DNA of 45,775 bases from Eubacteriales bacterium (GCA_045124835.1 JBGVMO010000023.1:1-45775), one strand, 5' to 3'. Positions 10,673 to 25,103 are shown, numbered from the stretch's first letter. The notes: generated from the sequence alone by a model not told the origin. Translations and numbers: made by a program.

Positions 10673-12694
10673 TCAGGACTTCTTTCTGAATACGAAGAAC
10701 CAAACGGCACCGCCGCCAACCAGTACCACCGCCACGATAACCACAGGCAGTACCCAACCGTTATTCGCTGCATTCTCCTCGGGTTCGGGAGTGGGGTCAG
10801 GAGTGGGGGTAGGGTCGGGAGTGGGGTCGGGGGTAGGCGCGGGGGCTGCCTTCTCCGTCCACTTGGCGTGGAGGGTAACATCTGCCTCAACGGCAGCATT
10901 AAAATCATACGTCTCTGTCAGAGCCGCATCGGTGTACCAGCCCTCGAAGGTGAAGCCTTCCTTAGTGGGGGCGGTGGGAAGGATTGCCTTGCCACCCTCT
11001 ACCACCGTCTGGGTGGCTACGCTGCTGCCGCCGTTGGTGCTGAAGACAACGTCAAACTGAACGAGAGGCGGAGGAAGCGGTGCTTCATCCGTTACACCAA
11101 CAAGGCCGTTCTGCGCTGCTGCGGTGTAGAAGCCTTCAGCCTGTAGCACATCCTTGTAGGCAGCGCGAACAAAAAGCTTGGCGTTGCCCACGGTTTCACC
11201 GTCAAAAAGGACGGTATTATCCGTTTCATCCGTGACAAGCGCGGCATCCAACAGAATAACGGTGTTCTCCGATACGCCTGCCGATACATAAAGAATCTGT
11301 TGGACAGCTCCCTTTTCGGAGATGGAAACGATGCGCCCACCCGTAACAGAGATTTGATGCTCGCCCTCATTTACGTAAACAGTGGAGAAGCGGTTGGTGG
11401 GATGCACGGAGACAACGCTTTTGCCGGTCAGAACCGAGTCAACCACGGTTATTTGGCTTCCGTCGCCCCAGATATTGACGGCGGCCCAGCCCGTTATCTC
11501 GGAGTTGCGAATGATAAGCTCCGTTCCGCTTGCGCTTGCAGTCAGATTAACGGCATAGTAGTTTGCAACGGTAAGAGAAACCTTATCCAAGGTCAAGCTT
11601 GCCTTCGCGCCGATGCTGATGCCGCGGGCGTACGCCTTAGAAATGCTTTGTCCGTCAATAACAAGGTTATAAAGAAGAATGCTTTCCGAGGTGGTAACGT
11701 CAATCACGCGGTCGTCCGTATAGCCGATTGACGTGCGGATGGCATAGCCGTTTCCGTTGATGCTGACGCCCTTATCAAAAACGAGGCGCGCATCGATTTC
11801 GACATCGGCAAGCAAGTAGACGGTTTCGCCGTTTGCATTAGCAATAGCGTCCTCTAAGGAGCCGTAATAGGTGTTATGCACCTTGGCAACAGCGCCATCA
11901 ACCGTCAAGGTATTCAGCGAATTGCCGGATTGAATCCTGACCGTTCCGCTGATAGAGATGCTGGCCTTTTCTGCGTCTGCATCAATGGATTCTATCCTTG
12001 AAAGCTGCACGATTGCCTGCGAGGCACCGTCAACAGCCTCTGCGATAATTTCGCTGTCGCCGATAACGGAAATGGCTATCTCGGGGTCGTTTGCCACGAT
12101 AACGCCGAAGCTCTCGCCTGCGTGTTTATTATAGCCGTAGAGCACCGAATTCTCAATTGAAACAGTCGTGCCCTCGCCCCAGACGTTAACGGCGGCCCAG
12201 CCGCTAAGGCGAGAATTGCGCACGGTGATTTGGCTTCCTGCGCCAAGACGGGGAACATTCAAGGCGTAATAATCAACGCCCTCTACCGTCACGCCCTCAA
12301 GCAGAAGCTCTACCTGATCAATCACGTTGATGCCGCGCTCGCCGTTTTGACTTTGAAGGGTCAAATTGCGAACGGTTGCGGAAGCGGAAATGTTCATGCC
12401 GATTTCGGCCGAAGTTGTAATGGAGAAATCATTGCCCTCCAAGGTAATCTCCTTGTCGATAAGGAGCGTTTCGGTGAGGGTAACATCTCCATTCATATAG
12501 ACGGTGTCCCCGTCCTGTGCGGCAGAAAGTGCGTCTGCCAAGCTATCGTAATGTAGCATCGTTTTTTCACGTATAATATACGCATCGGCAGTATCGGCCG
12601 CTGTGTGCATTGCGAAGGGCAGAAGGAGCAAAATGCAGAGAGCCACGATTCCTATCTGCCATACTTTTTTGAGGTTTACTTTCTTGGTCAACAT
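10673..12694 (-). CDS. Cell-surface protein: signal peptide, two tandem beta-helix (pectin-lyase-like) modules, InlB B-repeat (Listeria-Bacteroides repeat), Pro/Thr/Asp linker, C-terminal membrane anchor
   Basis: Repeated Y.SL.DA…GWAAVN.WG.G; V.F.TNGGS…PTKEGFTFEGWYTD…TLHAKW; (TPDP)n; hydrophobic tail ending RKKS. Confidence 0.85.
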   Translation of the reverse strand: MLTKKVNLKKVWQIGIVALCILLLLPFAMHTAADTADAYIIREKTMLHYDSLADALSAAQDGDTVYMNGDVTLTETLLIDKEITLEGNDFSITTSAEIGMNISASATVRNLTLQSQNGERGINVIDQVELLLEGVTVEGVDYYALNVPRLGAGSQITVRNSRLSGWAAVNVWGEGTTVSIENSVLYGYNKHAGESFGVIVANDPEIAISVIGDSEIIAEAVDGASQAIVQLSRIESIDADAEKASISISGTVRIQSGNSLNTLTVDGAVAKVHNTYYGSLEDAIANANGETVYLLADVEIDARLVFDKGVSINGNGYAIRTSIGYTDDRVIDVTTSESILLYNLVIDGQSISKAYARGISIGAKASLTLDKVSLTVANYYAVNLTASASGTELIIRNSEITGWAAVNIWGDGSQITVVDSVLTGKSVVSVHPTNRFSTVYVNEGEHQISVTGGRIVSISEKGAVQQILYVSAGVSENTVILLDAALVTDETDNTVLFDGETVGNAKLFVRAAYKDVLQAEGFYTAAAQNGLVGVTDEAPLPPPLVQFDVVFSTNGGSSVATQTVVEGGKAILPTAPTKEGFTFEGWYTDAALTETYDFNAAVEADVTLHAKWTEKAAPAPTPDPTPDPTPTPDPTPEPEENAANNGWVLPVVIVAVVLVGGGAVWFFVFRKKS
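10781..10849 (-). repeat. Coding low-complexity repeat (APAPTPDPTPDPTPTPDPTPEP linker)
   Basis: Degenerate GGAGTGGGGTC-like 12-bp units on the + strand. Confidence 0.8.
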
Positions 12695-12912
12695 AATTTT
12701 TCCTTTCTGTTTTCATAAAAGTGCGTTTATGTATCTTCATAGAGCAAGGCCTCCCTTCCTAACGTTGCACAAAGAGAAGCTCTTGCGAAAAGGCTATACG
12801 CATTTTCTGTATTCAGTATACAGGCTCGCTTTTGAAAATTCTATCTCCCAAAACCGATTTTTTTGACGATGGCGGACGGCGCCTTTTGCCAAAAGCGGAT
12901 ATCGCAAAGCGC

Positions 12913-12966
12913 AAAAAACGGATATCTCTCTTCCCAAAGCATCGGAAAGATGAAATATCCGTTTTT
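12913..12966 (-). terminator. Terminator after the HTH-LuxR regulator
   Basis: AAAAACGGATAT (12914-12925) / ATATCCGTTTTT (12955-12966). Confidence 0.7.
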
Positions 12967-12982
12967 CATATAAAGGACTATG

Positions 12983-14233
12983 TTAAAGAATAGAGGCCAG
13001 CTCGTGACGCCCTTGCACGTTACCCTTGTGTGTTGCGCTTCTCAGGGATTGCTTGACGCTTGCCAAGGAAATACCGAGCTTGTCGGCAATCTCCTGATTG
13101 GAGAAGCCAAAAACGGCAAGCCTTGCCACCTCGCGCTCGCGGCTTGTCAAATTGGCCGCCATATTGCGCTTCTGCACGGCATTGCTCAGCTTGGCGTAAT
13201 TAGCGGCAAGAGGCTTTTGCAGCTCTCGAACGGCCAAGAGCGCCTCTTCGCTTGCCAAGGCCAAGCGCTCCTCCAAAAGATAGCTGAAGGCTCGATAATG
13301 CTCGGCCAAGAGTCCGTAAAGCCTGTCGGGCAGGGTTAAGGCGATGGCGCGGTCCAGATGCCGCGTTGCCTCCTCGACTTTGCCGACGTTATGGTACACA
13401 ACGGCCGACACAAGCCGCAGATAAATTTCGGGAACGACGAGCCTGTCGGCCGCCGCCTGCGAGACCATCGGCTCCAAAATCATCGGGAGCATATTCATCA
13501 TCGCCAAGCCCTGTACCCCCTCAATTGTGTGCTGCTTCGTGGCAACGCCGTAGGCCAAGGCATACAGATATTTGGCGTAAAAAACCTTGGCGGCAGGGAG
13601 CGCATCGGAGGGCAAAAGCTCAAAATTGCCCACCTTAAACCACGCAGGAAAGGAGCGCGCGTCAAAAAGCGCGCTATCCAAGGCGGTTAAGGAAAAGGTG
13701 ACGATATCTCTGTCCTTATCCGTTTTACAGGGTGCTTCGCACATATGCATCTTCGCATTGTTCCACATAGAAACGTCGCCGCGCCAAACGGCACAAAGGC
13801 CAAGCAGCATTCCTGCGGACTGCACGGCGTAAAAGCCCGAATGCTTATTTAAAAGATAATTCGCTCTTTCGTACACCTTATCAATTTCACCGCGCAGATA
13901 GGCAATTTCAGCCTCGAAAAGAACCTCGGCCTCGTGATTGTAAGCAAGCCTTTCGATTGCGGCGTCTGCCGTGCCGGGCACGGTATATAAATCCGTCATA
14001 TCAAGAAAGGGGGTCTTGCGCGGCAGGGGCATATCCGTCACGACGGCGCTTGTCCGTTCCTGTCTGCCTGCTTTGGTTCTTCCGTCAGCGCCGCGCTCGG
14101 CCGTTTCCGGTATCATCCAAGCGCGCCCGTGCCGCATGGCACCCTCAATTCGCCCCGCCGTGCAAAGCGCCTGCACGCGCCTTTTGGAGACTCCCCATTT
14201 CTTTGCTATCTCATCTATTGTCATATATTTCAT
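12983..14233 (-). CDS. Transcriptional regulator: N-terminal excisionase/MerR-like HTH, helical TPR-like core, C-terminal LuxR HTH
   Basis: MKYMTIDEIAKKWGVSKRRVQALC..GRI.GA…AWMIP; C-terminus LTSREREVARLAVFGFSNQEIADKLGISLASVK. Confidence 0.88.
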   Translation of the reverse strand: MKYMTIDEIAKKWGVSKRRVQALCTAGRIEGAMRHGRAWMIPETAERGADGRTKAGRQERTSAVVTDMPLPRKTPFLDMTDLYTVPGTADAAIERLAYNHEAEVLFEAEIAYLRGEIDKVYERANYLLNKHSGFYAVQSAGMLLGLCAVWRGDVSMWNNAKMHMCEAPCKTDKDRDIVTFSLTALDSALFDARSFPAWFKVGNFELLPSDALPAAKVFYAKYLYALAYGVATKQHTIEGVQGLAMMNMLPMILEPMVSQAAADRLVVPEIYLRLVSAVVYHNVGKVEEATRHLDRAIALTLPDRLYGLLAEHYRAFSYLLEERLALASEEALLAVRELQKPLAANYAKLSNAVQKRNMAANLTSREREVARLAVFGFSNQEIADKLGISLASVKQSLRSATHKGNVQGRHELASIL

Positions 14234-14250
14234 AGTGCTTCCCTTTTACC

Positions 14251-14314
14251 GTTCGTTTTGGCGAACAATATATTGTTCTTTTTTGCGCACAATATATTGT
14301 TCGTTTTTGCGCCA
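14251..14314. repeat. Tandem 24-bp palindromic repeats (2.7 copies), probable operator array
   Basis: GTTCGTTTTGGCGAACAATATATT (14251-14274), GTTCTTTTTTGCGCACAATATATT (14275-14298), GTTCGTTTTTGCGCCA (14299-14314). Confidence 0.85.
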
Positions 14315-14326
14315 TTTACAACCAAA

Positions 14327-14355
14327 ATTATACAGAAAAAAATCGTATTTGTCAA
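14327..14355 (-). promoter_or_regulatory. Consensus sigma-A promoter for the HTH-LuxR regulator
   Basis: Minus strand TTGACA (14350-14355) N17 TATAAT (14327-14332). Confidence 0.9.
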
Positions 14356-14451
14356 GATATTTTCTTGCTTTTTGCCAAAAAAATGCCCGAGCCCAACAGT
14401 CTATTGCTCCGTTGAGAGCATTCTGCTTTCGGGTTCGGGCAGCAAGACACC

Positions 14452-15312
14452 TTAACGGTGCTTGGGAATGGGTAACAGGGCGCGAGTTTCCTGCTTGTAA
14501 GCGGCGAAGCCATCCTTTCGGGACTGTCTGCCGTCTGCCATAGGAATACTGACAGCGAAAAACAAAACGGTATTGGCAAGGGCGCCAAGCAAGAGCCCCC
14601 ATGCAGCAGGCGCTAAGGACACCACCGAAAGAGCAACGCCCCACCACATCAATAGCTCGCCAAGATAGTTGGGATGACGGGAATACTTCCAAAGCCCGTG
14701 GCGGTTGAAGGGGGCATCCTTGCTTTTGCGGTAACGGTGCATTTGCACGTCTGCCGTTCCCTGCAACAGAATGGCGCATAAAGAAACACCCAAAAGTGCA
14801 ATGCTTCCCGCATTTGCCGAGAGCCCGTGTATCAGGGCATAGACGGCAGGAAGGGTGCAGGCGTAAACCACGAGCGTTGGCACCATATGAATGCCGATAA
14901 AATTGATAAGGGGATAAAAGGCCCCCGTTTTTTCTTGCAGCATGGTGTAACGCCAATCCTGATGATTGAGTCCACCGAAGGTATACGCCCAGTTGGCCGT
15001 CAGCCGCACACCCCACAAAAGAACGACGAAGAGCAAAAGAGCGCCAAAGAACGTTATCTCCTTGTCGGCGGCGAAGGCCAGAAGAATCACGGGAGGTTGT
15101 ACGCTCCAATAGGGGTCATACACCGAGGCATTTTGAAAGATAAGGCTGAAAAGAAAGGTAAAAACGGTGGCAAGAGCATCCGCCACAAGAAGTGCCAGAT
15201 ACCAAGGCAAAGGGAGCCTGCCGTAAACAAAGGCCCCAAGGGCACCGGCAAGAATATATACTGCCGAAACAGCGAGAAAGCTACCTATACGGCTTTGCTT
15301 AAGTGTCTTCAT
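14452..15312 (-). CDS. DUF1295 membrane protein (steroid 5-alpha-reductase-like)
   Basis: NASVYDPYWS, WGVRLT.NW, QDWRY, ADVQM, GLWKYSRHPNYLGE; multiple TM helices. Confidence 0.9.
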   Translation of the reverse strand: MKTLKQSRIGSFLAVSAVYILAGALGAFVYGRLPLPWYLALLVADALATVFTFLFSLIFQNASVYDPYWSVQPPVILLAFAADKEITFFGALLLFVVLLWGVRLTANWAYTFGGLNHQDWRYTMLQEKTGAFYPLINFIGIHMVPTLVVYACTLPAVYALIHGLSANAGSIALLGVSLCAILLQGTADVQMHRYRKSKDAPFNRHGLWKYSRHPNYLGELLMWWGVALSVVSLAPAAWGLLLGALANTVLFFAVSIPMADGRQSRKDGFAAYKQETRALLPIPKHR

Positions 15313-15320
15313 CGTGTCTT

Positions 15321-15608
15321 TTATAAAGCCTTGTATTCCTTCAGCACCGTGGACTTAACGTAATCGTCCTTCAAGGCACGCATACGCTCCATATGCGGCT
15401 GCTCAATGTGAATTTCCTGATGGCGCTTGGTTTCCCATGCCTCAACCAACAAAAGCTCGTTGGGGTCTGCCTCGGAAAAATAGAAATCGTACTTGTGGCA
15501 ACCGTCCTCGGCGCGGATGGCGGAGAGGATGCCCTCCTTTTTCAGTCTTGCAACGAAGGCCTCTCTCTGGCCGGGCAGACAGGTGAATACAACATAGATG
15601 CGGTACAT
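15321..15608 (-). CDS. Antibiotic biosynthesis monooxygenase (ABM) family protein
   Basis: R.EDGC..Y.F…LLLVEAWE…H...PH pattern, 95 aa. Confidence 0.88.
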   Translation of the reverse strand: MYRIYVVFTCLPGQREAFVARLKKEGILSAIRAEDGCHKYDFYFSEADPNELLLVEAWETKRHQEIHIEQPHMERMRALKDDYVKSTVLKEYKAL

Positions 15609-15634
15609 AGCGTTTTTCCTTTCTTCTTACCTTA

Positions 15635-16822
15635 TTATTTGCCCTGAAGCTTTTTGCCGATGGCGGCGATGTAGGGCTTGATATGCTCCAAGATCTCGTC
15701 CTCGGTTTCTGCCGCAGGGGTGTCGCTCCAAAGACAATAGCCACCGCCCAAAACGCGCGCATTGGGGGCTTCAAGGTTGTTTTCGGGATGCTCGTGATCC
15801 ATCACGTAGGCGTTAAAGCTTTCCTCTATCATTTCGGGGGTAACGTGATGCACGGAGCCAAAGCCGAGGGTGTAATAGGTATAATAATGGTTAAAGTTAT
15901 ACAGGGCGTGTCCCTTATCCAGATAGAATGCAGGGGTGTTTTTGCTATCGTTCGCGGTGGGAAGCCAATACTGCATTTCAAGGGCAGGGTCAAGCTGGGT
16001 AACGCCCGTATAGCCTGTATCAAAGCTACGGTAGGCGTCATCATTCCACATACGGAGCGAGGTATAGCCAAGTGCGCGCAAAAGCGCGCAAAGGTCATTG
16101 ACGTAAAGCACGAAGGCGTCATAGGCCACGGCGTTTTCGTTGCCCGTTACCTTTCGCGCGTAGTCGCGCCAATGGTCAAGGTTTTGCCATTTGGAGAGCG
16201 TTTCGTCGATGGTTTCGCCAAAGCCGAGAAGCTCGTCTCCGCCGATGTCAAACTTGGTACAGCCAAGCTCGCGGAAAAAGAGGCCGTACTCGGTATACAG
16301 GCTCTTGGCAAAGGCAAGCGCCTCGGGATTGATAATATCAATGCCGCGCGAATAGGCGGTTTGCGCCTCTTCCTTGTTGACGCTGGAGCCGTGAACGATG
16401 GAAACCTTGCCATCCTTGTGAAAATAGTTGCCGATGTCCGTCTTGAAATGTGCGTTATACTTCTTGACAACGTAGTTCATATGTCCGGGAGAATCAAGGG
16501 AAGGAATCACCTCAAGCCCGTTTGCCTGCGCGAAGCGAACGATATCCGCCATTTCCTCTTGCGTGATATATTTATCATCGTCCTCGGGACAGCCGTTTGC
16601 CGCGCCGTATACGCAAAGCGAATAGTCGCCCCCCGCAAGCCACGGATACGTTTTGGACTCCAAGCGCATGCCGATGTCCTCGGAGAAATGAATGCTCAGG
16701 GCATTGTAGCCTGCCGCGGCAAGCTCAACAATCAAGCGCTTTATCCAATTGGGCGTATAGTATTTACGCGCACAATCCAACATAAAAATGCGTTCTTCTA
16801 CGCGGTATTTTTCGTTACTCAT
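15635..16822 (-). CDS. GH20 glycoside hydrolase (beta-N-acetylhexosaminidase / lacto-N-biosidase-like), catalytic domain only, cytoplasmic
   Basis: LDCARKYY, HFSED, DSPGH, DIGGDE (catalytic DE), WND, WSD. Start moved to ATG 16822 (RBS AAGGA). Confidence 0.85.
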   Translation of the reverse strand: MSNEKYRVEERIFMLDCARKYYTPNWIKRLIVELAAAGYNALSIHFSEDIGMRLESKTYPWLAGGDYSLCVYGAANGCPEDDDKYITQEEMADIVRFAQANGLEVIPSLDSPGHMNYVVKKYNAHFKTDIGNYFHKDGKVSIVHGSSVNKEEAQTAYSRGIDIINPEALAFAKSLYTEYGLFFRELGCTKFDIGGDELLGFGETIDETLSKWQNLDHWRDYARKVTGNENAVAYDAFVLYVNDLCALLRALGYTSLRMWNDDAYRSFDTGYTGVTQLDPALEMQYWLPTANDSKNTPAFYLDKGHALYNFNHYYTYYTLGFGSVHHVTPEMIEESFNAYVMDHEHPENNLEAPNARVLGGGYCLWSDTPAAETEDEILEHIKPYIAAIGKKLQGK

Positions 16823-16833
16823 TGCTGTTTCCT

Positions 16834-17136
16834 TTACATTCTCTTTATCTTGCAAAAGCTTCTCTTTTTGCACTTGGGGCATTTCAACATTCTCTTGTCC
16901 ATATAATGGAGAGAAACGGAAAATTGATACCATTTGGCCTTAAATTCTTCATTGCAATGGGGGCAAATGTAGGTTTGCGAAAGCAATCGCATATACACCA
17001 AGACGAAAACGAGCGCCAAGGCGATGGCTAGCACGTACCAAGGCACCTCTACCGTTTTTCCTATCAGATTGACGGTGCAAGAGGAAAGGGTGAGCGGCAA
17101 AAGCGCACAAAGAAGGATGAGGGAGAGTTTTTTCAT
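16834..17136 (-). CDS. Small membrane protein: lipobox-like signal, TM helix, Zn-ribbon (CPHC…CPKC)
   Basis: MKKLSLILLCALLPLTLSS-C; hydrophobic WYVLAIALALVFVLVYM; two CxxC pairs; RBS AGAGG. Confidence 0.7.
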   Translation of the reverse strand: MKKLSLILLCALLPLTLSSCTVNLIGKTVEVPWYVLAIALALVFVLVYMRLLSQTYICPHCNEEFKAKWYQFSVSLHYMDKRMLKCPKCKKRSFCKIKRM

Positions 17137-17177
17137 ATTGAAGCCTCTTTCTGTGTTTTCCATACTAGTATAAGAGA

Positions 17178-17206
17178 ATTATAGCATACTCCTTTCCTTT
17201 TGTAAA
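17178..17206 (-). promoter_or_regulatory. Sigma-A promoter for the Zn-ribbon/GH20/ABM/DUF1295 operon
   Basis: Minus strand TTTACA N17 TATAAT with TG extension. Confidence 0.7.
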
Positions 17207-17356
17207 GAGGATATATAGAAGTGCCCTCTGAATGCCGAATGGCTCTCGAATTTACAAGATTTTTTTCGCCTTCTTGCCCTTTTTCTTGCCTTTTTCCCTT
17301 TTTTTCGGCAAAAAATAGCCCACGAAAAAACTTTTTTAAAAAAATTGAAAAAATGC

Positions 17357-17385
17357 TTGACAAATGGGAAAGATATTGCTATAAT
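17357..17385 (+). promoter_or_regulatory. Consensus sigma-A promoter for tRNA-Gln
   Basis: TTGACA N17 TATAAT, extended -10, A-tract UP element upstream. Confidence 0.9.
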
Positions 17386-17399
17386 AATATCCGCGCTGA

Positions 17400-17473
17400 T
17401 GCGGAATTGTGTAACGGTAGCACGACAGACTCTGACTCTGTTTGTTGGGGTTCGAATCCCTATTCCGCAGCCA
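17400..17473 (+). tRNA. tRNA-Gln (CTG)
   Basis: Acceptor TGCGGAA/TTCCGCA, anticodon arm ACAGA-CT-CTG-AC-TCTGT, T-loop GTTCGAATC, encoded CCA. Confidence 0.97.
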
Positions 17474-17507
17474 AAAAATCCTCGTTCTTCGGAACGAGGA
17501 TTTTTTT
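17473..17507 (+). terminator. Rho-independent terminator after the tRNA
   Basis: AAAAAATCCTCGTTC-TTCG-GAACGAGGATTTTTTT. Confidence 0.92.
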
Positions 17508-17712
17508 ATCCAAGCCGCAGGCTTGGCATATCATTGAATGTATAACTCGCCTGCGGCGAGATATACATTCGTATATCATCAGGGGCGGCAAGCCGCCCTT
17601 GTATCTCATCACGCGCCAGCGTGCATTTCCCTGCGGCTTGATGATATACAAGGCTTACGCCTTGGTGATATACAATGCTTCGCATTGATGATATCCACGG
17701 CTTTGCCGTGAT
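17508..17712. repeat. Multi-hairpin array with conserved ATATCAT/ATGATAT linkers (REP/BIME-like element or structured RNA)
   Basis: Seven distinct hairpins separated by (G/C)TATATCATC-like linkers that switch orientation mid-array; see findings. Confidence 0.8.
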
Positions 17713-17862
17713 TTTTGGGGCGTTCTATTCCGCTACACTTGCCCCGATCATATCAAAGCGTTTGGAGGGTTGTCCCTCTTTTTTTCTTGCCCTGCGGCGT
17801 TTTATGCCGCGAAAGGCTCTTGACACGAGAAGGAGCGTGGTAGGCTATCCGCCAAGGCAAAC

Positions 17863-18049
17863 AAACAATCCCGAAATATGGTATGCCACCAATATGGAAA
17901 TTCACGATTATGTAGAGGCATACAAGAGCCTGATTTACAGCGCAGACGGCTATACGGTATACAATCCCACATTGATTGATCTTTGGTTCGATGTTGACGG
18001 TGTTTTGTACGAGATTGGCTCGGGCAAAACGCTGAGAATCAAGGAGTAA
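17863..18049 (+). pseudogene. Orphan C-terminal fragment resembling clostridial polysaccharide deacetylase-family proteins
   Basis: NNPEIWYATNMEIHDYVEAYKSLIYSADG..VYNPT..DLWF.VDG; no catalytic N-terminal domain or RBS; followed by a terminator. Confidence 0.55.
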
Positions 18050-18083
18050 AGCGCATACCTAAGCTGCACTTGACTAATATAGC

Positions 18084-18121
18084 AGAACACAGACCTCTTT
18101 TTGTGGTCTGTGTTCTTTTTT
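18084..18121. terminator. Terminator between convergent units
   Basis: AGAACACAGACC / GGTCTGTGTTCT followed by a T-tract. Confidence 0.8.
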
Positions 18122-18151
18122 GGTGGGCGCGGTGCAAGGCGCAAAATCCCA

Positions 18152-19591
18152 TCAAAGCTTTTCTATCTTATCGGGGTAAGGCTCTACTCTTACGTCGTTC
18201 TTGCCAAGGCGCAGAAAGAGGCGGAAAAAGGCCTTGGGCGCGAAGGGGATGAGGGGATAGAGATAGCTTTTTCCACCGTTGACCGTTTTGTTGAAAAAGA
18301 GAAGCAGGGGGATGACGAGGCCGAAGCCGACAAAGCCCCAAAGGCCGAAAAGGGCGGTAAGGGCAAGCCATATCATCCGAAGCAGCTTGACGGCGTAGCC
18401 AAGCTCTCGGTTTTGCTGGGTGAAGCCTGCGATGGCGACGATGGCCATATAAAAAATTACGTCCGTTGAGAGCCAGCCGATATCCACCGCGAACTCGCCG
18501 AGAATCAAGCCGCCGATGATGCTGAGCGAATTGGTTAGCATACTTGGAGTATTCATCGAGGCGAGCTTGAGCCCGTCAATCGCAAGCTCGGCAAGATATA
18601 TTTGCAAAAGAAGCGGGAGTCTGCCCGTCTCCTTTGGCACGAAGATATCAAGCCACGGGGGGAGCACGGCGGCGTTTTGTACCAAAAGATACCACGCGGG
18701 CAAAAGGAAGAGGGCCATCCAGAAAACGAAATGCCGAATCATGCGCAGATAACACCCCGTTACCAAGGGAAAATAATAATCGTCCGTTTCCTGCATAAAG
18801 TCAAAAATGGTGGTGGGAAGCACCATTACCTGCGGCGAATTGTCGCAAAGGATAAGCACCCTTCCCTCCATCAGCTCTGCCGCGGCGGCATCGGGGCGCT
18901 CCAAGTACCGTATTTTCGGAAAAGGGTTATACCAGCGGCGGCGTATCAGGCATTCAGCAAGGCTTTGCGCCCCCATCGTGAGCGATTCGGGATGAACGGA
19001 GCGAAGTTTTCCTATCAGCCATTTCACATATTTGGCGTCTGCCTTGCCCTTGATATAGCTGACAACCACATCGGTACGCGAGCTTCCGCCTAAATTCTCA
19101 TAATGCATCACGAGGCGCGGGTCGCGGATGCGACGGCGGATGAGCGCCGTATTGAAAATCAGGGTTTCGACAAAGCCGTCGTGCGCCCCCTGCATCACCC
19201 TGTCGCTATCGGGCTCCTCGGTTTGCCTTGCGGGATAGGTACGGCTGTCAATCACAACGGCAGAGGCGCCGAAGCCCTCTCCTATCATCACGGAGGCCCC
19301 CGACAAAACGGCGGTTATAAGCGGCTCGATTTCCGAAATGACGTCCACCTCAACGTAGGGCAGGTTGACAGAGGCAAAGGTTTGGGCGTCCGGCAGGCTC
19401 TTCAAGCCCATAAAGTGCTGCATAAGCTTCTGCATCACCCCATCCTTCGTGAAGCCGTCAATATAGAAAAGAGCCGCCTTATCCTTCCCTATCAATATTT
19501 CACGGCAAATGACGTCAAAGCTATCCTCGGGAGCAAGGCGCAGCTTCAAAAACGCAAGATTTTCCTTATAATTTTCCGTTAGCCTTTGCAT
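18152..19591 (-). CDS. GerA/SpoVAF-family spore germination protein
   Basis: SFDVI.R, YPAR..EEP..D.V..G..DGFVETLIFNTALIRRRIRDP.L, ERPD, C-terminal TM region with SYLYPLIPF. Start ATG 19591. Confidence 0.9.
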   Translation of the reverse strand: MQRLTENYKENLAFLKLRLAPEDSFDVICREILIGKDKAALFYIDGFTKDGVMQKLMQHFMGLKSLPDAQTFASVNLPYVEVDVISEIEPLITAVLSGASVMIGEGFGASAVVIDSRTYPARQTEEPDSDRVMQGAHDGFVETLIFNTALIRRRIRDPRLVMHYENLGGSSRTDVVVSYIKGKADAKYVKWLIGKLRSVHPESLTMGAQSLAECLIRRRWYNPFPKIRYLERPDAAAAELMEGRVLILCDNSPQVMVLPTTIFDFMQETDDYYFPLVTGCYLRMIRHFVFWMALFLLPAWYLLVQNAAVLPPWLDIFVPKETGRLPLLLQIYLAELAIDGLKLASMNTPSMLTNSLSIIGGLILGEFAVDIGWLSTDVIFYMAIVAIAGFTQQNRELGYAVKLLRMIWLALTALFGLWGFVGFGLVIPLLLFFNKTVNGGKSYLYPLIPFAPKAFFRLFLRLGKNDVRVEPYPDKIEKL

Positions 19592-19621
19592 AAAATTCCT
19601 TTCCTTCTGTTTATTGAAAAC

Positions 19622-19660
19622 AAAAAAGCATCTTCCATTTTGTAGTATGGAAAATGCTTT
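19622..19660 (-). terminator. Probable terminator of the MFS-GDPD-methyltransferase operon
   Basis: AAAGCAT.TTCCAT / ATGGAA.ATGCTTT with an A-tract on the left. Confidence 0.6.
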
Positions 19661-19687
19661 CATTTTTATTCTTGTTTATACAAGGCT

Positions 19688-20809
19688 TTATTTTTTGTTT
19701 TGGAAATATTGATAGAGGGTGCAGGGGATCATACCGTTATACAGCTTTCTCACCTTATCGGCGCGGCGGCCGTAATAGCGCTCAAACTCCTTATCCGAAG
19801 TGATAACGTACACCTGCCAGGGTGCAAGCTCACGGAAGCAGGGGCCAAGCTGCCGATAGAGCGCTCTTGCCTCCTCAAGCGTTCCAAGCCGCTCTCCGTA
19901 GGGAGGATTGGTGACAATAGTGCCGCGGCGGTCAAGCTTTTTAATAAGGCGCGCGTCGGCCTCAAAGCAACGGACGCTATCGGAAAGGCCCGCCCTTTTG
20001 ACGTTGGCCTCGGCAAGAGAAACGGCGCGCGGGTCAATATCGCTGGCAAAGGCCTCAAAGCCGTTATTCTCCTCTAAATCAAGCGCCTCCTCACGCGCGC
20101 GCTGCCAAGCACCGCTCGGAATAGCGGAAAAATCCATAGCGGCAAAGGCGCGCTTTTTACCGGGCGCAATTTTTTTGGCAATCATCGCGCCCTCAATGGC
20201 AATGGTGCCCGACCCACACAGCGGGTCCCACAAAAGCACGTGCGGCAGGGGGCGGGAAATGGCGGCAATGGCGGCGGCCAAGGTTTCTCTGATGGGTGCA
20301 TCGTTCGCTTCGATACGGTAGCCTCTTTTGTGCAGGGGCACGCCCGTGGTATCAATCATCAGGGAGGCCTCATCCTTCAATATAAAGAATTCCACCTGAT
20401 ATTTAACGCCGCTTTCCTCAAACCAAGAAAGGCCGTATTGCCGCTTCAAGCGCTCAACTATCGCCTTTTTGACGATTTTCTGACAGTCGGGCACGGAAAA
20501 AAGCTTGGAATGAATGGCGTGTCCCTTGACGGGAAAGGCATCGCTCTTCCCTATCCACATCTCCCAGGGTAAGTCCTTCGTGCCTTCAAAAAGCGCATCA
20601 AAGCTTTCGGCGCGAAAATGACCAAGACGGATATAGACGCGCTCGGCAAAGCGCAGATTGACGTTGGCACGGGCAATGCCGTCCTCGTCAGCCTGAAAGA
20701 AAACGCGGCCGTCTATCGTTCCCGTGCGGTGAAAGCCCAAGGCGTCTATTTCCTCGCCAAGCAATCTTTCCAAGCCGAAAAGACAGGTTGCGACAAGCTC
20801 AAAGGTCAT
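19688..20809 (-). CDS. rlmL: THUMP-domain class I SAM-dependent 23S rRNA methyltransferase (RlmL/YpsC-like)
   Basis: ATCLFGLE, DTTG.PLHKRGYR, APIRETLAAA, DPLCGSGTIAIE, TNPPYGER, KLYNG. Confidence 0.9.
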   Translation of the reverse strand: MTFELVATCLFGLERLLGEEIDALGFHRTGTIDGRVFFQADEDGIARANVNLRFAERVYIRLGHFRAESFDALFEGTKDLPWEMWIGKSDAFPVKGHAIHSKLFSVPDCQKIVKKAIVERLKRQYGLSWFEESGVKYQVEFFILKDEASLMIDTTGVPLHKRGYRIEANDAPIRETLAAAIAAISRPLPHVLLWDPLCGSGTIAIEGAMIAKKIAPGKKRAFAAMDFSAIPSGAWQRAREEALDLEENNGFEAFASDIDPRAVSLAEANVKRAGLSDSVRCFEADARLIKKLDRRGTIVTNPPYGERLGTLEEARALYRQLGPCFRELAPWQVYVITSDKEFERYYGRRADKVRKLYNGMIPCTLYQYFQNKK

Positions 20810-21642
20810 ACTGTGTCTCCTTTTATGGCACCGAGAACATCCTCCTCAATGCTTTCAAAAATAACGGTGTCCGCACCCTTGGCCTTTAATAGCTCTTCTT
20901 TTTTCCTTACCGTCCAAGCCACCCGATAGGGCCGCCAGAGGAATGAAAGGCGAAGAGGGAGCGAGGCGGTATGCTCAATATCGTAGGCCATAAAATCGGG
21001 ACGCGCATAGACATTCAAGAGCAAAAGCGAAAGCACGAGCATCGCCGCCGAGCGACCCGTTTTCTTGTTAAAGACCCAAGAATACAGCTGTCCGCGCACA
21101 ACGGCGGGACGGTGCCGACGAAACCAACCGACAATCAGGGGGTGAAAGGACTCTATCATATAGTCGCCCTTATAGCCGTCTAAAATCGCGGCGGTTTTTT
21201 CGCAAAGAAGGGTTCTTTGATACTCACTTTTCAGCTCGATTAAAAGAGGCACCCTGCCGCCAACCAGCTCCAAGACCTCCTTCAAGGTGGGAACACCGTC
21301 CTCTGTTTCGGAAAGAGAAAGAGAGGCAAGCTCCTTGACCGTTTTTTCACGCACGCGGGCATCAACCCCCGTTACACGCTTCAGATGGTCATCGTGGAAA
21401 ACGACGACCTCACCGTCCTTGGAGAGCTGCACATCAAGCTCGATACCGACCCCCGCCTTGACAGCCGCAGCAAAGGCGGAAAGCGAATTTTCGGCAAATT
21501 TCTTGCTCCAAAGCCCACGGTGCGCATAGGCAGCGTGCATAAAGGGCACGGCCGCTCTTCTCCTTGCCCCCGTCATCAAAAGAAGGAGATACAGAAGAAA
21601 AAGCGAGGCAAGCGCTACGAGGACGTAAAATATAGCAGGCAT
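20806..21642 (-). CDS. Glycerophosphodiester phosphodiesterase (GDPD), N-terminal membrane anchor
   Basis: AHRGL…ENS..AF, IELDVQLSKDG.VVVFHD, PTL.EVL, IELK, AWTV. Confidence 0.92.
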   Translation of the reverse strand: MPAIFYVLVALASLFLLYLLLLMTGARRRAAVPFMHAAYAHRGLWSKKFAENSLSAFAAAVKAGVGIELDVQLSKDGEVVVFHDDHLKRVTGVDARVREKTVKELASLSLSETEDGVPTLKEVLELVGGRVPLLIELKSEYQRTLLCEKTAAILDGYKGDYMIESFHPLIVGWFRRHRPAVVRGQLYSWVFNKKTGRSAAMLVLSLLLLNVYARPDFMAYDIEHTASLPLRLSFLWRPYRVAWTVRKKEELLKAKGADTVIFESIEEDVLGAIKGDTV

Positions 21643-21684
21643 TTTTGTTTCCTTTCAAATGCACAAGGTAAAGACGGCTTTCAA

Positions 21685-23058
21685 TCAATCTGCCGCATCA
21701 AAGCTTTCAAGCACACTTCTCTTTTCGGCCTTGACGTCACCGTGCTTCACGAAGCACATAGAGACGGCGGCAAGCACCATAAAGATGGCGGCATAGGGGA
21801 ACAGGATTCGGTAGCCGAAGTCAGGATAGGCCTTGCGGACGGCAGAAATCAGGAAGCCTGACACAATGGGAGTTGCCACCTGAGCGGCCATAGAAAAGGC
21901 GTAATAATAGCCCGTGTACTTACCGACATCCTCCTCACTGCTGATTTGCACAGCCATCGGGAAGGAGTTGACGTTAATGGCGGCCCAACCGATGCCGACC
22001 ATAGCGAAGACCACGTAAAAGACGATTTTGGCAGAGGCGAAGAGCGCCGCATCCATAAAGGTGGCGGCGATAAAGCCCGAAAGCATCAGGCCAATACCGA
22101 TGAAAATAACGGGACGGCGGCCGATTCTCGAGGAAAGGGCGCCAACGGGAATAAAGGCAATAGCGGCGGCAACGAGGGCAACGAGAGTAAAGCCCGAGGA
22201 CTCGGAAACGCCGATATGAAAGACGTTTTCACAGTAGCGGGAGATGGCGGTGGTGACACCGTTATAGGCCATAAACCAAAGGAACACGGAAAGAAGGATA
22301 AAAAGAAGCGAGCGTCTGCTTTCCTTCTGGCTGACGGCAAGATGGACGGTTTTGGGCGCGTCCTTCTCGGAGTCTTCAATTTCCTGACGAACGAGCGCTG
22401 CTGTTTTCCTTTCCCTGACGGTCAGAAGGAAAATGCCAACGGCCAGAAGCATAAAAGCGGCAAGCGCCAGAATGACGGGAAGGTAGACCGTGCTTGAGGC
22501 AGGGGCACTCGTTCCGTCCGGCAGCTTTTCCTTTTTCACCAACAGCATCACGAGAACGAGGGAAACACCGCCGCCAACCGTTCCCATCAGGTTGATGATG
22601 GCGTTCGCGCGGCTACGCAGGGGCGCCGGCGTCAAATCGGGCATCAGGGCAACGGCAGGAGAGCGATAGGTGCTCATCGCGAGAAGCAGAAGGAAGAGGG
22701 CGATGAAGAAGATGGGAAAATTGTCAATTTTTTCGGCAATGCCCATCAAAGCGAGGAAAAGAACGGCTAAAAGGGTTCCGCCCACGATATAGGGCGTTCT
22801 TTTGCCAAGGCGCGTGGCCGTTCTATCCGAAAGCGTACCAAAAAGAGGCAAAAGAAAGAGTGCCAATATGTTGTCAAAGGACATAATAACGTTGGTAACG
22901 GCCGTTTTACTTCCCTGTCCAAAAATAGCCTCCAGCGTATCGCCAAAGGAAAATTCGAGCAGATAGGGAATAACCTGATCATAAAACTGCCAGAAAGCCG
23001 AGATAGACAAGAACGCAAGGCCGATAAAAATAGTTCTTTTTACATTTAATTTACCCAT
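21685..23058 (-). CDS. MFS transporter (SLC45/glycoside-cation symporter-like)
   Basis: LSDRT.TRLGKRTPY, YRSPAVALMPD, ~12 TM helices. Start ATG 23058. Confidence 0.9.
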   Translation of the reverse strand: MGKLNVKRTIFIGLAFLSISAFWQFYDQVIPYLLEFSFGDTLEAIFGQGSKTAVTNVIMSFDNILALFLLPLFGTLSDRTATRLGKRTPYIVGGTLLAVLFLALMGIAEKIDNFPIFFIALFLLLLAMSTYRSPAVALMPDLTPAPLRSRANAIINLMGTVGGGVSLVLVMLLVKKEKLPDGTSAPASSTVYLPVILALAAFMLLAVGIFLLTVRERKTAALVRQEIEDSEKDAPKTVHLAVSQKESRRSLLFILLSVFLWFMAYNGVTTAISRYCENVFHIGVSESSGFTLVALVAAAIAFIPVGALSSRIGRRPVIFIGIGLMLSGFIAATFMDAALFASAKIVFYVVFAMVGIGWAAINVNSFPMAVQISSEEDVGKYTGYYYAFSMAAQVATPIVSGFLISAVRKAYPDFGYRILFPYAAIFMVLAAVSMCFVKHGDVKAEKRSVLESFDAAD

Positions 23059-23186
23059 TGCCAAAAACCGCCTTTTGTAAAATTTATACACCGTTATTTT
23101 ACCATAGCTTTCCCTTCTTGTCAATGAGAAAAAGAGGGAAAGAAGAAAGAGAAAGCGGCCAAAGAGAGTAAAGCGCCTCTCTTCCC

Positions 23187-23215
23187 TTGACAAGCACGGA
23201 AAGCTATGCTATACT
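23187..23215 (+). promoter_or_regulatory. Sigma-A promoter for ribF-prmA-rsmE
   Basis: TTGACA N17 TATACT with TG extension. Confidence 0.75.
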
Positions 23216-23274
23216 TAAAGAAGGCTTTTTTCCAAAGCCTTGTTCTTGATATTTCGACAGAAAAGAGGGCTTTT

Positions 23275-24183
23275 ATGCTTTCCATTCTTTCCTTGCCCTG
23301 TGCCCCCGTTTCCTTTGAAACGGTGACGGCGCTCGGCTTTTTCGACGGCGTTCATCGCGGCCATCGAGCGCTTCTTGACGCGACCGTGCGCTTGGCAAGC
23401 TCTCTTGGCGTTAAGCCCGCCGTTTTTACCTTTTCGGGCACCTTTAAGGGCAAAGCGCCCCTGACCGACGAAAGCACGCGGCTTCGTCTGCTTGAGGAGG
23501 CGGGCATCGAAGCCGTTTTTTTGGTTGATTTCGATGCCGTTCGTTCCCTTTCACCCGAGGATTTTGTAAAGAACTGTTTACAAGGCGTTTGCCGCGCTCG
23601 TGCGGCCGTTTGCGGCTTTAATTTCAGATTCGGCAAAAACGCCTCGGCAACGGCCGAGAATTTGCTTTCGCTGCTTCCCTCCTCGCTTATCATCCCTGCG
23701 ATATATGAAAGCGGAGAGGTGATTTCCTCCTCGCGCATCCGCGCGCTTTTGAAGGCGGGTGCGGTTGAAGAGGCGGCACTATTGCTTGGGCGGCCTTATT
23801 CGCTTACGGGCGAGGTTTTGCGCGGCAAGGCGCTTGGCAAGACTTGGGGCTTTCCAACGGCCAACATGAAGCCCCGTGCGCTTTTACCTGCACCTGCCGT
23901 TTACGCAACGGAGATTTTTATCGGTGAAAAGCGCTACCCTGCCATTACGGACGTTGGCACGCGCCCGACGGTTGAGGGCGCGGGAGAGACCCGTATGGAG
24001 ACGCACATTCCCGCCTTTTCGGGCGATTTGTACGGAAAGACGCTTTCCGTTTCCTTCATCAAGCGCCTGCGCGACGAGAAGAAATTTCCCTCCGCAGAGG
24101 CGCTTTGCGCGCAGCTAACCTTGGACGTTGCCGCGCTTAACACAATTTTTGACGATACCGAGAAAGGAAAAAACAACCAATGA
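23275..24183 (+). CDS. ribF: Bifunctional riboflavin kinase / FAD synthetase
   Basis: LGFFDGVHRGH, GFNFRFG, ISSSRIR, GFPTAN, GTRPT, LRDEKKF. Confidence 0.95.
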   Translation: MLSILSLPCAPVSFETVTALGFFDGVHRGHRALLDATVRLASSLGVKPAVFTFSGTFKGKAPLTDESTRLRLLEEAGIEAVFLVDFDAVRSLSPEDFVKNCLQGVCRARAAVCGFNFRFGKNASATAENLLSLLPSSLIIPAIYESGEVISSSRIRALLKAGAVEEAALLLGRPYSLTGEVLRGKALGKTWGFPTANMKPRALLPAPAVYATEIFIGEKRYPAITDVGTRPTVEGAGETRMETHIPAFSGDLYGKTLSVSFIKRLRDEKKFPSAEALCAQLTLDVAALNTIFDDTEKGKNNQ

Positions 24184-25103
24184 GCAACGAATGGATTAAG
24201 CTAACGCTTCGCGGCAAGAAGACGGACGAGGAGCTTCTTTGCGCGATGATGAGTATGCTTGAAAACGGCCTGATGATAGAGGATTACAGCGACGTGACGA
24301 CCGACGGGCTTTACGGCGCTTTGATTGACGAGGCGATTTTGAACGCCGACAAAACGCACATTGCGGTTTCCGTTTTTCTTCCTGCGGAGGAAAATCCCAG
24401 AGAGGCCATTGCCTTTATCAAGGACAGATTGCAGGAAACGGGCGTTGAAGGCGCGCTTTCCACCGAGGGCATGAAGGAGGAGGACTGGGCAGAGGCCTGG
24501 AAGCAATACTACCACCCCATTCCCTTGGGCCGCGTGACCGTTGTTCCCGCTTGGGAGGAATACACTCCCTCCGAAAACGAGGCCATTATCCGCATGGATC
24601 CCGGCATGGCCTTCGGCACGGGAACGCACGAAACCACCCGTCTTGTCATGCTTTTGATGCAAGAGGCTCTTTCGGGCGGCGAGCGCGTGCTTGACGTTGG
24701 CACGGGAAGCGGCATTCTTGCCCTTTGCGCCTCAAAGCTTGGCGCTGCCTCTGTGCTTGCCACGGATATTGACCCTGTGGCCGTTCGCGTTGCCGAGGAG
24801 AACGTTGCTTCCGACGGAGCAAAGAATATCACCTGCATCGTTTCGGATTTGGTTAAGGACGTTTCTATCGAAAACGGCCGTTACGATTTCGTTTTAGCCA
24901 ACATCGTGGCCGATATCGTGCTTCGCCTGATTCCCGCACTTCCTGCTTGCACAACGAAAAACGCCAAGGCGATTTTCTCGGGCATTATCGAGCCTCGCCG
25001 CAAGGACGTTGAGGCGGCGCTTGCGGAAAACGGCTGGGAAATTGATACGGTTGATACCGAGCGCGACTGGTGCGCCATTCTTGCGCATCGCAAGGAGGCC
25101 TGA
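24180..25103 (+). CDS. prmA: Ribosomal protein L11 methyltransferase
   Basis: EEDWAEAWKQYY, DPGMAFGTGTHETT, LDVGTGSGIL, ANIVAD. Confidence 0.96.
   Translation: MSNEWIKLTLRGKKTDEELLCAMMSMLENGLMIEDYSDVTTDGLYGALIDEAILNADKTHIAVSVFLPAEENPREAIAFIKDRLQETGVEGALSTEGMKEEDWAEAWKQYYHPIPLGRVTVVPAWEEYTPSENEAIIRMDPGMAFGTGTHETTRLVMLLMQEALSGGERVLDVGTGSGILALCASKLGAASVLATDIDPVAVRVAEENVASDGAKNITCIVSDLVKDVSIENGRYDFVLANIVADIVLRLIPALPACTTKNAKAIFSGIIEPRRKDVEAALAENGWEIDTVDTERDWCAILAHRKEA

Follow-up and report, generated by a model that had tools for sequence, protein, structure and literature searches.

Downstream of a tRNA-Gln gene in a metagenome-assembled genome (MAG) of a Eubacteriales bacterium (GCA_045124835.1; 200 contigs, 85.6% complete) lies a run of seven short hairpins joined by a conserved linker, or word, whose orientation flips halfway. 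The array occupies positions 17508-17712 of the window, by which we mean the whole stretch of DNA that was analysed (JBGVMO010000023.1, 45,775 nt). What is this structure, and does it work as RNA or as DNA? We find that it belongs, as a genuine orphan copy, to a large superfamily of DNA elements so far essentially undescribed, and that many members of this superfamily stand before a gene of the PF05635 family. Our favoured reading, held tentatively and given slightly less than an even chance, is that the array is a DNA-level platform read by a protein, the window's copy being an orphan of the word class GTATATCATC/GATGATATAC. An earlier, sequence-only reading of the locus had listed a protein-binding scaffold among its possibilities, and this is the one towards which the evidence now leans.

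Anatomy of the array

The seven hairpins, their linkers and the long-range complementarity described by the sequence-only reading were all recovered in place by reading the sequence and by an inverted-repeat search. The array and the transcription unit before it comprise the following features.

17357-17385, + strand: promoter of tRNA-Gln; TTGACA, 17-nt spacer, TG-TATAAT (hexamer matches 12/12, with TG extension)
17400-17473, + strand: tRNA-Gln, anticodon CTG (ARAGORN; Rfam tRNA, 59.8 bits)
17473-17506, both strands: bidirectional intrinsic terminator; A-run, perfect 15-bp stem, T-run, then a constant TAT
17510-17526, + strand: anchor hairpin X (H1), CCAAGCC-GCA-GGCTTGG, with a C-GNA-G loop on the + strand
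17527-17623, + strand: left block of three word and mini-hairpin modules (L1-H2, L2-H3, L3-H4)
17527-17534: word L1, CATATCAT, with hairpin H2 at 17536-17570 (16-nt arms, complementarity 94%)
17571-17580: word L2, GTATATCATC, with hairpin H3 at 17581-17600
17601-17610: word L3, GTATCTCATC, with hairpin H4, CACGC-GCCA-GCGTG, at 17610-17623 (GCGCCAGC on the + strand, which fits GCGNNAGC)
17624-17640, + strand: centre; spacer CATTTCC, then X' (CCTGCGGCTTG), the reverse complement of the 5' arm and loop of X
17640-17710, - strand: right block of three modules in the opposite orientation (R1-H5, R2-H6, R3-H7), resembling Rfam Gut-1
17640-17649: word R1, GATGATATAC, with hairpin H5 at 17649-17664
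17664-17673: word R2, GGTGATATAC, with hairpin H6 at 17673-17687 (GCGAAGC on the - strand)
17687-17696: word R3, GATGATATCC, with hairpin H7 at 17696-17710

The long-range complement joins CAAGCCGCAGG (17511-17521) to X' (17630-17640) over 11 nt with 100% complementarity. The array folds strongly on both strands. Folded as RNA, the + strand reaches a minimum free energy of -96.5 kcal/mol and the - strand one of -94.3, where shuffled sequences (n=200) give about -61 +/- 4.6; the z-scores are -7.46 (+) and -7.51 (-), and 0/200 shuffles fold as well. The open reading frames (ORFs) that cross it are mechanical only, and a domain scan of the 12 neighbouring ORFs (10673-25103) found no cas, transposase or reverse-transcriptase domain, in keeping with the initial impression that neither an ORF nor a cas gene is present.

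A superfamily of arrays

To gather loci in other species, an exact 19-mer from the anchor hairpin served as the probe, which biases the sample towards one class. This yielded at least 124 loci in species-representative MAGs labelled Acutalibacteraceae, Oscillospiraceae, Faecousia and Flemingiibacterium, among others, mostly from ruminant guts. These listed loci are the basis of the linker, hairpin, position and promoter counts given here; 107 of the 124 have at least 300 nt past the anchor hairpin, and 89 of those parse into left and right linkers. A single-copy sequence would have spoken against a repeated element, and this is not what we see, since the window's genome alone holds 25 arrays, all word classes counted. 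Further full copies stand on contigs C71, C155, C182 and C199 and variants on C84, C95 and C51, and in a comparison with 41 related genomes, 16 of them from other families of the order, matches were found in 23, including 4 of those 16.

The members share one grammar: a terminator, TAT, X, three word and hairpin modules, a spacer, X', and three modules carrying the reverse-complement word. The terminator lies directly before the anchor hairpin in all 124 loci listed, and among the 89 parsed arrays a layout of exactly 3 + 3 linkers is seen in 58. X and X' vary in concert: of 19 arrays with a variant anchor hairpin, 15 contain the matching X'. The hairpins form a stock of 174 distinct sequences, 44 of which recur in at least two arrays. 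Those of the left block hold their position, while those of the right block shuffle; CGCAACAAGTTGCG, for example, occurs in 27 arrays, at positions from R1 to R3. The window's array shows the full order of terminator, X, word-hairpin block, X' and opposed block, and has no PF05635 gene downstream.

Contigs were mapped on 15600-19700 from two runs each of metatranscriptome (X19, X20) and DNA (X2, X6) sequencing. In bovine-gut DNA runs the summed contig depth reached hundreds to thousands over the array and 3-20 on its flanks, an excess expected of an abundant repeat. Arrays also break assemblies, and many sit at contig ends.

Variations on the grammar were seen as well. The contig end C95:1-190 repeats a unit of roughly 78 nt in tandem, and locus L205 (genome G028) carries two complete head-to-tail arrays, each with its own terminator. 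One word class occurs in both block orders, with CATCATT first or AATGATG first (L195 and L201 versus C199:362-537 and C132), so that 'convergent' and 'divergent' arrangements relative to the tRNA and the gene both exist.

Such a family invites comparison with repetitive extragenic palindromes (REPs) and bacterial interspersed mosaic elements (BIMEs) of Enterobacteria and Pseudomonas. There, palindromic extragenic units are assembled with short linkers into mosaics, occur in numerous copies and follow the 3' ends of transcription units, and binding of host DNA proteins is reported for BIMEs. The initial description of the array as REP/BIME-like stands as far as its many extragenic, palindromic copies behind terminators are concerned. 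It does not extend to the cognate transposase (RAYT): Y1_Tnp (PF01797) has 0 matches in the window's 85.6% complete genome; the control search was positive in 6/14 reference genomes. The array also differs from REP, BIME and REPIN units in having no GTAG-type head, in its 3 + 3 opposed rather than alternating blocks, in a conserved linker with free stems, and in its tie to tRNA and PF05635 genes. That the array is simply a selfish repeat of the REP/BIME or miniature inverted-repeat transposable element (MITE) type, spread in trans by a transposase such as RAYT and with no dedicated function, would suit the sharing of hairpin modules between copies as well as the extragenic placement. We nevertheless regard it as very improbable. 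Besides the missing transposase, neither a target-site duplication nor a terminal inverted repeat beyond the words was found, as a MITE would have; there are about 25 arrays per genome, not hundreds; and a purely selfish repeat would not be expected to have a fixed 3 + 3 layout, to be placed so strictly behind tRNAs or to fall into word classes that correspond to PF05635 clades.

Association with PF05635 genes

The gene that follows many arrays, whose product begins MAKNYLLIYSEQL, belongs to PF05635, the '23S rRNA IVS protein' family, which shares the four-helix bundle of Avd from diversity-generating retroelements (DGRs). To our knowledge this family, known as Avd of DGRs and as the ORF of 23S rRNA intervening sequences (IVSs), is common but has no known role outside DGRs. 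Among solved structures, the array-associated protein is closest to 2RLD, whose entry has five chains of an uncharacterised protein.

In the window's genome, 11 PF05635 genes score over the cut-off. Upstream sequence is assembled for 9 of them, and all 9 have an array there whose word differs from gene to gene; in every one of these arrays the left word is the reverse complement of the right word. Seen from the arrays, a PF05635 gene lies downstream of 9/25. Orphan arrays, with no such gene, exist in several classes; the GTATATCATC class has five in the genome, the window's included. Among the relatives, inspection by eye found an upstream array at 26/28 PF05635 loci; the exceptions are L186, with no array, and L202, where another kind of palindromic element takes its place. 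The link to four-helix-bundle (IVS/Avd-like) genes, which the sequence-only reading had mentioned, is borne out for the family, as is its remark that no such gene adjoins the window's copy. Across the 41 genomes, 22 have both arrays and PF05635, 1 arrays only, 5 PF05635 only and 13 neither.

Words and proteins vary together. Over 23 arrays with automatically derived 7-mer words, word similarity correlates with PF05635 protein identity (Spearman 0.49; 0/5000 permutations as high), and arrays with identical words precede proteins with a mean identity of 91%. Orthologues of the protein encoded on contig C38 of the window's genome are found behind arrays of the GTATATCATC class at L208 and at no fewer than 12 of the loci L028-L151.

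In a wider sample of the phylum, some 6-mer occurs at least four times in the 180 nt upstream of 11/24 PF05635 loci, compared with 23/311 control windows. PF05635 genes lie within 23S rRNA genes in L224 and L225, and one further gene of this sample lies behind a tRNA. Repeated words upstream, together with positions at rRNA, RNase P RNA and tRNA genes, indicate that PF05635 genes tend to carry private words and to sit at stable-RNA genes.

Two side observations belong here. Outside Oscillospirales (L215, L221, L223, L227, L243 and others), plain tandem word repeats with no hairpins often precede PF05635 genes, such as about 13 copies of CAGGAG-type 8-mers in L221 and GTGATGG x6 in L227. In L231 (G124:C1:402344-405661) a PF05635 gene lies within the RNase P RNA gene, where the Rfam match spans 775 nt for a 367-position model; by analogy with the 23S rRNA IVSs of L224 and L225, this looks like an intervening sequence in rnpB.

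Searches of the literature on PF05635 and the 23S rRNA intervening sequence returned no description of such arrays, and searches combining IVS protein, four-helix bundle and tRNA, or REP elements and Oscillospiraceae, returned nothing relevant. In the accessible part of one paper on CRISPR adaptation modules, '23S rRNA IVP' is named only in a figure legend (PMC10910872).

Probably DNA rather than RNA

Across 176 distinct inter-linker hairpins, 952 of 973 stem pairs (98%) are Watson-Crick, 9 are G:T and 6 are A:C, so that there is neither a strand bias nor an excess of G:T. Because a folded RNA would tolerate G:U on one strand, stems this close to pure Watson-Crick pairing point to DNA over RNA. 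In an alignment of 46 array sequences (A1), each of the five local hairpin helices with at least 5 pairs shows two-sided changes at 3-6 pairs, and pairing is kept at 89-97.5%; all controls fall far below them, and the two short segments of the central hairpin vary less.

The loops point the same way. On the + strand, 78 of 181 distinct left and central hairpins have the form C-G(N)NA-G and 7 the form C-T(N)NC-G; among 161 distinct right and tail hairpins the counts are 0 and 83. Loop polarity therefore flips with the words, and the array is better described as two opposed blocks of oriented modules than as one folded strand. The accessible text of PMC13037366 describes GCGNAGC and GCGNNAGC as an 'extraordinarily stable mini-hairpin DNA' motif.

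The proposal that the halves zip into a large multibranch structure found no support. Energy minimisation does pair left with right linkers in the window, but such pairing is predicted because the same word is present in both orientations. Over 52 distinct linker sets, nested pairing gives 152 mismatches, compared with 138-177 for the other five possible assignments. The commonest L1 variant, with C at position 2, faces a G in R3 in 0/32 of the linker sets that carry it, and the linker columns that vary most, 18/222 and 107/167, fail to pair in 33/46 of the A1 sequences. Deviating linkers are not matched by compensatory changes.

Part of the array does resemble a described RNA family. Against the Rfam model of Gut-1 (RF01706), 17639-17719 of the window scores 20.3 bits, where the gathering score is 50, so that the window's array is not a member; among the family members tested the highest scores belong to L145, with 36 bits on one strand and 31.9 on the other. 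An existing Rfam entry had been named at the outset as something that might account for the sequence, and this holds as a resemblance of the right half and not as a match above threshold. Like the Gut-1 model, the right half consists of three hairpins and a short conserved linker, and H5, H6 and H7 align to the three hairpins of the model. The Gut-1 linker is (G)UGAAAU, and the window's array has TGATATAC in place of UGAAAU. The two have in common short, GC-rich hairpins whose sequence is free, a gut-metagenome origin and the absence of a known function. In the same genome, the word class on contig C113, GATGAAATC/GATTTCATC, carries the Gut-1 linker itself, and its array precedes a PF05635 gene. 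Gut-1 represents one block only, whereas the full element adds a terminator, an anchor hairpin, the opposed block and often a promoter. As far as the accessible text of the 2010 report goes, what was catalogued there as candidate RNA Gut-1 is one block of one word class (PMC2864571). Our search for literature on Gut-1 found nothing beyond that original description and a structure-prediction benchmark.

The array could accordingly be a structured non-coding RNA related to the Gut-1 candidate small RNA, transcribed on one strand and acting as RNA. It folds strongly, its hairpins co-vary, its right half has the Gut-1 resemblance, and Gut-1 is classed as a likely RNA in the portion of Weinberg et al. 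(2010) available to us (PMC2864571). The - strand has a weak promoter-like site, 17776 to 17747, directed into the window's array, the terminator is bidirectional, and short contigs from RNA libraries cover parts of family arrays. Set against this are the Watson-Crick-only compensation, where a structured RNA would show tolerated G:U on one strand, and the flip of loop type and word orientation mid-array, which leaves neither strand uniform. Compensatory changes do not back the long-range linker helices, and every Rfam match of the array stays below the gathering score. The array lies between a strong terminator and, in 32/84 copies, a promoter that uses its end as the -35. The RNA-library contigs (X19, X20) contain 50-57-nt array pieces at depth 2.7-5.5, with 23-47 for the tRNA and 3-4 for neighbouring coding DNA; these contigs carry no strand, ends or level, and DNA may be present in the libraries. 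This comparison decides nothing about an RNA role. On balance the evidence favours an array that works as DNA over one that works as folded RNA, and we judge the structured RNA put forward by the sequence-only reading to be quite improbable.

Position behind tRNA genes and promoter overlap

The idea of a modular, non-autonomous intergenic element tied to tRNA terminators is supported: 66/124 of the copies listed lie 34-48 nt behind a co-oriented tRNA, covering 15 amino-acid types, and 0 lie behind an opposed tRNA. The remaining copies follow other terminators. In the window's genome, 10/25 arrays lie behind one of its 41 tRNA genes.

The far end of the array often doubles as promoter. In 32/84 arrays the end of the last hairpin together with ATT forms TTGATT or GTGATT, 16-18 nt before a -10 box (26/1068 in controls), and 26 of these 32 have a TG extension. 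Copies with an overlapping promoter include those on C71 and at C199:1682-1930. No array-overlapping promoter was found in the window's copy.

Of 20 tRNA-Gln regions from 20 members of the genus, a tRNA-end pattern located the tRNA in 9. Behind the terminator, 3 of these have a hairpin-linker array and 5 have other sequence, and at 1 the contig ends at the tRNA; none of the 9 is a clean empty site. Past the terminator, the tRNA-Gln loci L166, L169, L170 and L177 of relatives contain inverted copies of the tRNA 3' end, such as GGCAGGGGAATAGAGGATTC, and GC-rich blocks, which could be scars of other integrations at tRNA-Gln. A second kind of element occurs at L164 (tRNA-Gln of G049), L202 and L239, behind a tRNA terminator or before a PF05635 gene; it is a long imperfect palindrome with CACT/TTCAC-type repeats and their complement (..CACTTTTCACTCTTCAC .. 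GTGAATAGTGAATAAG..) and has no mini-hairpins.

Some arrays away from tRNAs have a 'tail' motif before their terminator, consisting of two copies of about CACCTTTTTACTGTTCTT some 13 nt apart, at C71:2290-2450, C199:1580-1640, L060, L072, L101, L106, L117, L127, L144 and L147. With strict patterns, the tail motif was found upstream of non-tRNA copies at 6 loci and a tRNA-end-like remnant likewise at 6, with 3/31 control stretches positive for the remnant; tRNA 3'-end remnants are not established in the family.

Placement at tRNA ends raises the question of movement. The array may serve in cis as the leading end of a mobile gene cassette whose target is the 3' flank of genes for tRNAs and other stable RNAs; it would be a folded-DNA recombination site comparable in function to integron attC/attI sites, with the enzyme supplied in trans. 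This overlaps with a protein-read platform and assigns the array another primary function. Arrays of the GTATATCATC class with a MAKNYLL-type PF05635 gene stand behind at least 10 different tRNA species across genomes, many unrelated genes follow arrays (NUDIX and methyltransferase genes among them), and the content downstream of tRNA-Gln differs among species of the genus. On contig C71 a unit of array, NUDIX gene and tail motif is flanked by exact 37-nt direct repeats of the terminator, and elsewhere in the phylum there are the PF05635 genes inside 23S rRNA and RNase P RNA genes. Together these suggest mobility of the array units. Against a cassette, gapped patterns for the empty C71 site and the empty window site had 0 and 0 matches in metagenome contigs. 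The DNA-run contigs mapped on the window's locus end at the tRNA/array repeat, and none was seen that bridges or skips it. A target-site duplication (TTTAT) is not consistently present, the 5-mer recurring after the array in 18/84 copies and the 8-mer in 0/84. A recombinase gene lies beside 0/25 arrays, the genome's 3 tyrosine recombinases being on other contigs, and searches of the genome for a reverse transcriptase and a Y1 transposase found none. Arrays are nearly absent from collections of mobile DNA (1 of 2.9 million viral contigs, 0 plasmid and 0 phage records), and the tRNA 3'-end remnants that a cassette might leave are not established, the window's candidate not being significant. We consider the cassette doubtful as the primary function, though worth keeping in view.

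Comparison with known systems

The attC sites of integrons are folded-DNA sites with a conserved shape and free sequence that gather single accessory genes at one chromosomal hot spot. Our arrays differ from them in lying on the 5' side with a promoter, and no nearby integron integrase, R/L core sites, shown excision or empty site accompanies them. Pneumococcal BOX elements (boxA-boxB(n)-boxC) are likewise modular and intergenic, with variable internal modules; they can fold and sometimes affect neighbouring genes. They are unrelated in sequence to the arrays, their modules are conserved in sequence, and they have no word-hairpin grammar, tRNA link or partner protein. With CRISPR the arrays share the regular alternation of a constant and a variable unit. 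CRISPR direct repeats are 23-50 nt long, whereas the constant unit here is 10 bp and inverts mid-array; CRISPR spacers are unique pieces of captured foreign DNA, whereas the variable units here are palindromes shared between genomes, and no cas gene was found among the neighbours scanned.

The target hairpins of DGRs are, by analogy and as far as the accessible text of their description extends, the nearest worked precedent for an array read by a protein. That text describes DGR target sites as GC-rich DNA hairpins with free stem sequence and a strand-specific GRNA loop, and its authors name Avd as a possible contact of the hairpin (Guo et al. 2011, PMC3240598). To judge from the same portion of the paper, the arrays share the strand-specific G..A loop and the free GC-rich stems, and their partner family, PF05635, has the fold of Avd. 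They differ in that a DGR has one hairpin beside its variable repeat, whereas here the hairpins come in arrays with loops that are mostly 3-nt GNA rather than GRNA. The window's locus is not itself a DGR, as reverse transcriptase PF00078 has 0 matches in its genome and there is no pair of template and variable repeats.

A proposed protein-read platform

How might a protein-read array work? The GC-rich palindromes, of free sequence and with C-G(N)NA-G loops on the strand that matches the block, would extrude as small hairpins or cruciforms; the stable mini-hairpin loops on the orientation-matching strand imply that they can. The 10-bp words between the hairpins would be the sequence-specific part and would be read by a word-specific four-helix-bundle protein of PF05635. 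For the window's class, the putative reader is encoded elsewhere in the genome, by the gene starting MAKNYLLIYSEQL on contig C38. Since the last module often supplies the -35 of the next gene, binding would control or insulate the gene behind the tRNA unit. The binding site that the window's copy would provide between tRNA-Gln and the following gene is probably passive or a relic.

Several observations weigh against this reading. The window's copy has no adjoining PF05635 gene among the 12 neighbouring ORFs, and it lacks an overlapping promoter, as do 26/84 of the arrays tested. Two PF05635 loci, L186 and L202, have no such array; PF05635 occurs in 5 genomes with no array-class match, and arrays occur in 1 genome (63% complete) with no PF05635 match. 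The co-variation of words and proteins is a necessary result and no proof of recognition, as linked inheritance alone would also produce it. The contig ends at the C38 gene, with any array before it unassembled, so that the pairing of this protein with the word class would rest on its orthologues. Array pieces in contigs of two metatranscriptome runs mean that some transcription may occur. Finally, a model in terms of DNA leaves the placement behind tRNA genes unexplained.

If a PF05635 protein does read the word, the result would be a compact, naturally re-programmable DNA recognition system, and both an orphan Rfam motif and the clustering of PF05635 at stable-RNA genes would be explained. 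The family in any case offers PF05635 a concrete candidate partner, namely arrays in which stable DNA mini-hairpins alternate with a private word of 7-10 bp that occurs in both orientations. A bolder extension, which we think unlikely, is that each word class is a private address for its own PF05635 protein. Protein and array together would then make up a new type of element with stable-RNA genes as its home, which in Oscillospirales means the downstream side of tRNAs and in other groups the interior of 23S rRNA and RNase P RNA genes, and this element would carry or control single accessory genes. If true, this would give the '23S rRNA IVS protein' a function, the programmable recognition of words between extruded mini-hairpins, and would recast Rfam Gut-1 as half of a DNA element. 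Even if the PF05635 protein does not read the words, the arrays are a new and widespread class of intergenic repeat that supplies promoters to neighbouring genes, and in abundant Clostridia of the gut and rumen they stand where tRNA genes give way to variable accessory genes.

Surroundings of the window's array

Two minor features follow the array.

17714-17738, + strand: possible decayed tRNA-Gln 3' end, TTGGGG..CTATTCCGC (weak evidence; exact 9-mer)
17764-17785, + strand: second terminator-like hairpin, GGAGGG-TTGT-CCCTCT and a T-run

The first was dropped as evidence of a tRNA 3'-end remnant, as 241/2000 shuffles reach its local alignment score. A 78-nt stretch at 17795-17872, with a TTGACA box and leader, has 84-95% identity in many genomes of the genus. 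The next ORFs are one of 51-70 aa and then a GerA gene on the opposite strand. The small ORF (17894-18049, 51 aa from the ATG at 17894) has matches at 70-78% in members of the genus, and its 70-aa version matches DUF7841 below threshold (19 bits against a 25.2-bit cut-off); judged by this sequence conservation, the small ORF directly after the array is a conserved small gene of unknown function.

Upstream of the array, the region 10673-14233 contains a 673-aa surface protein with a Listeria-Bacteroides repeat and a C-terminal match to a CD1107-like 'mobile element protein', and beside it a 416-aa regulator with HTH_17 and LuxR-type domains. This region may be part of an integrated element.

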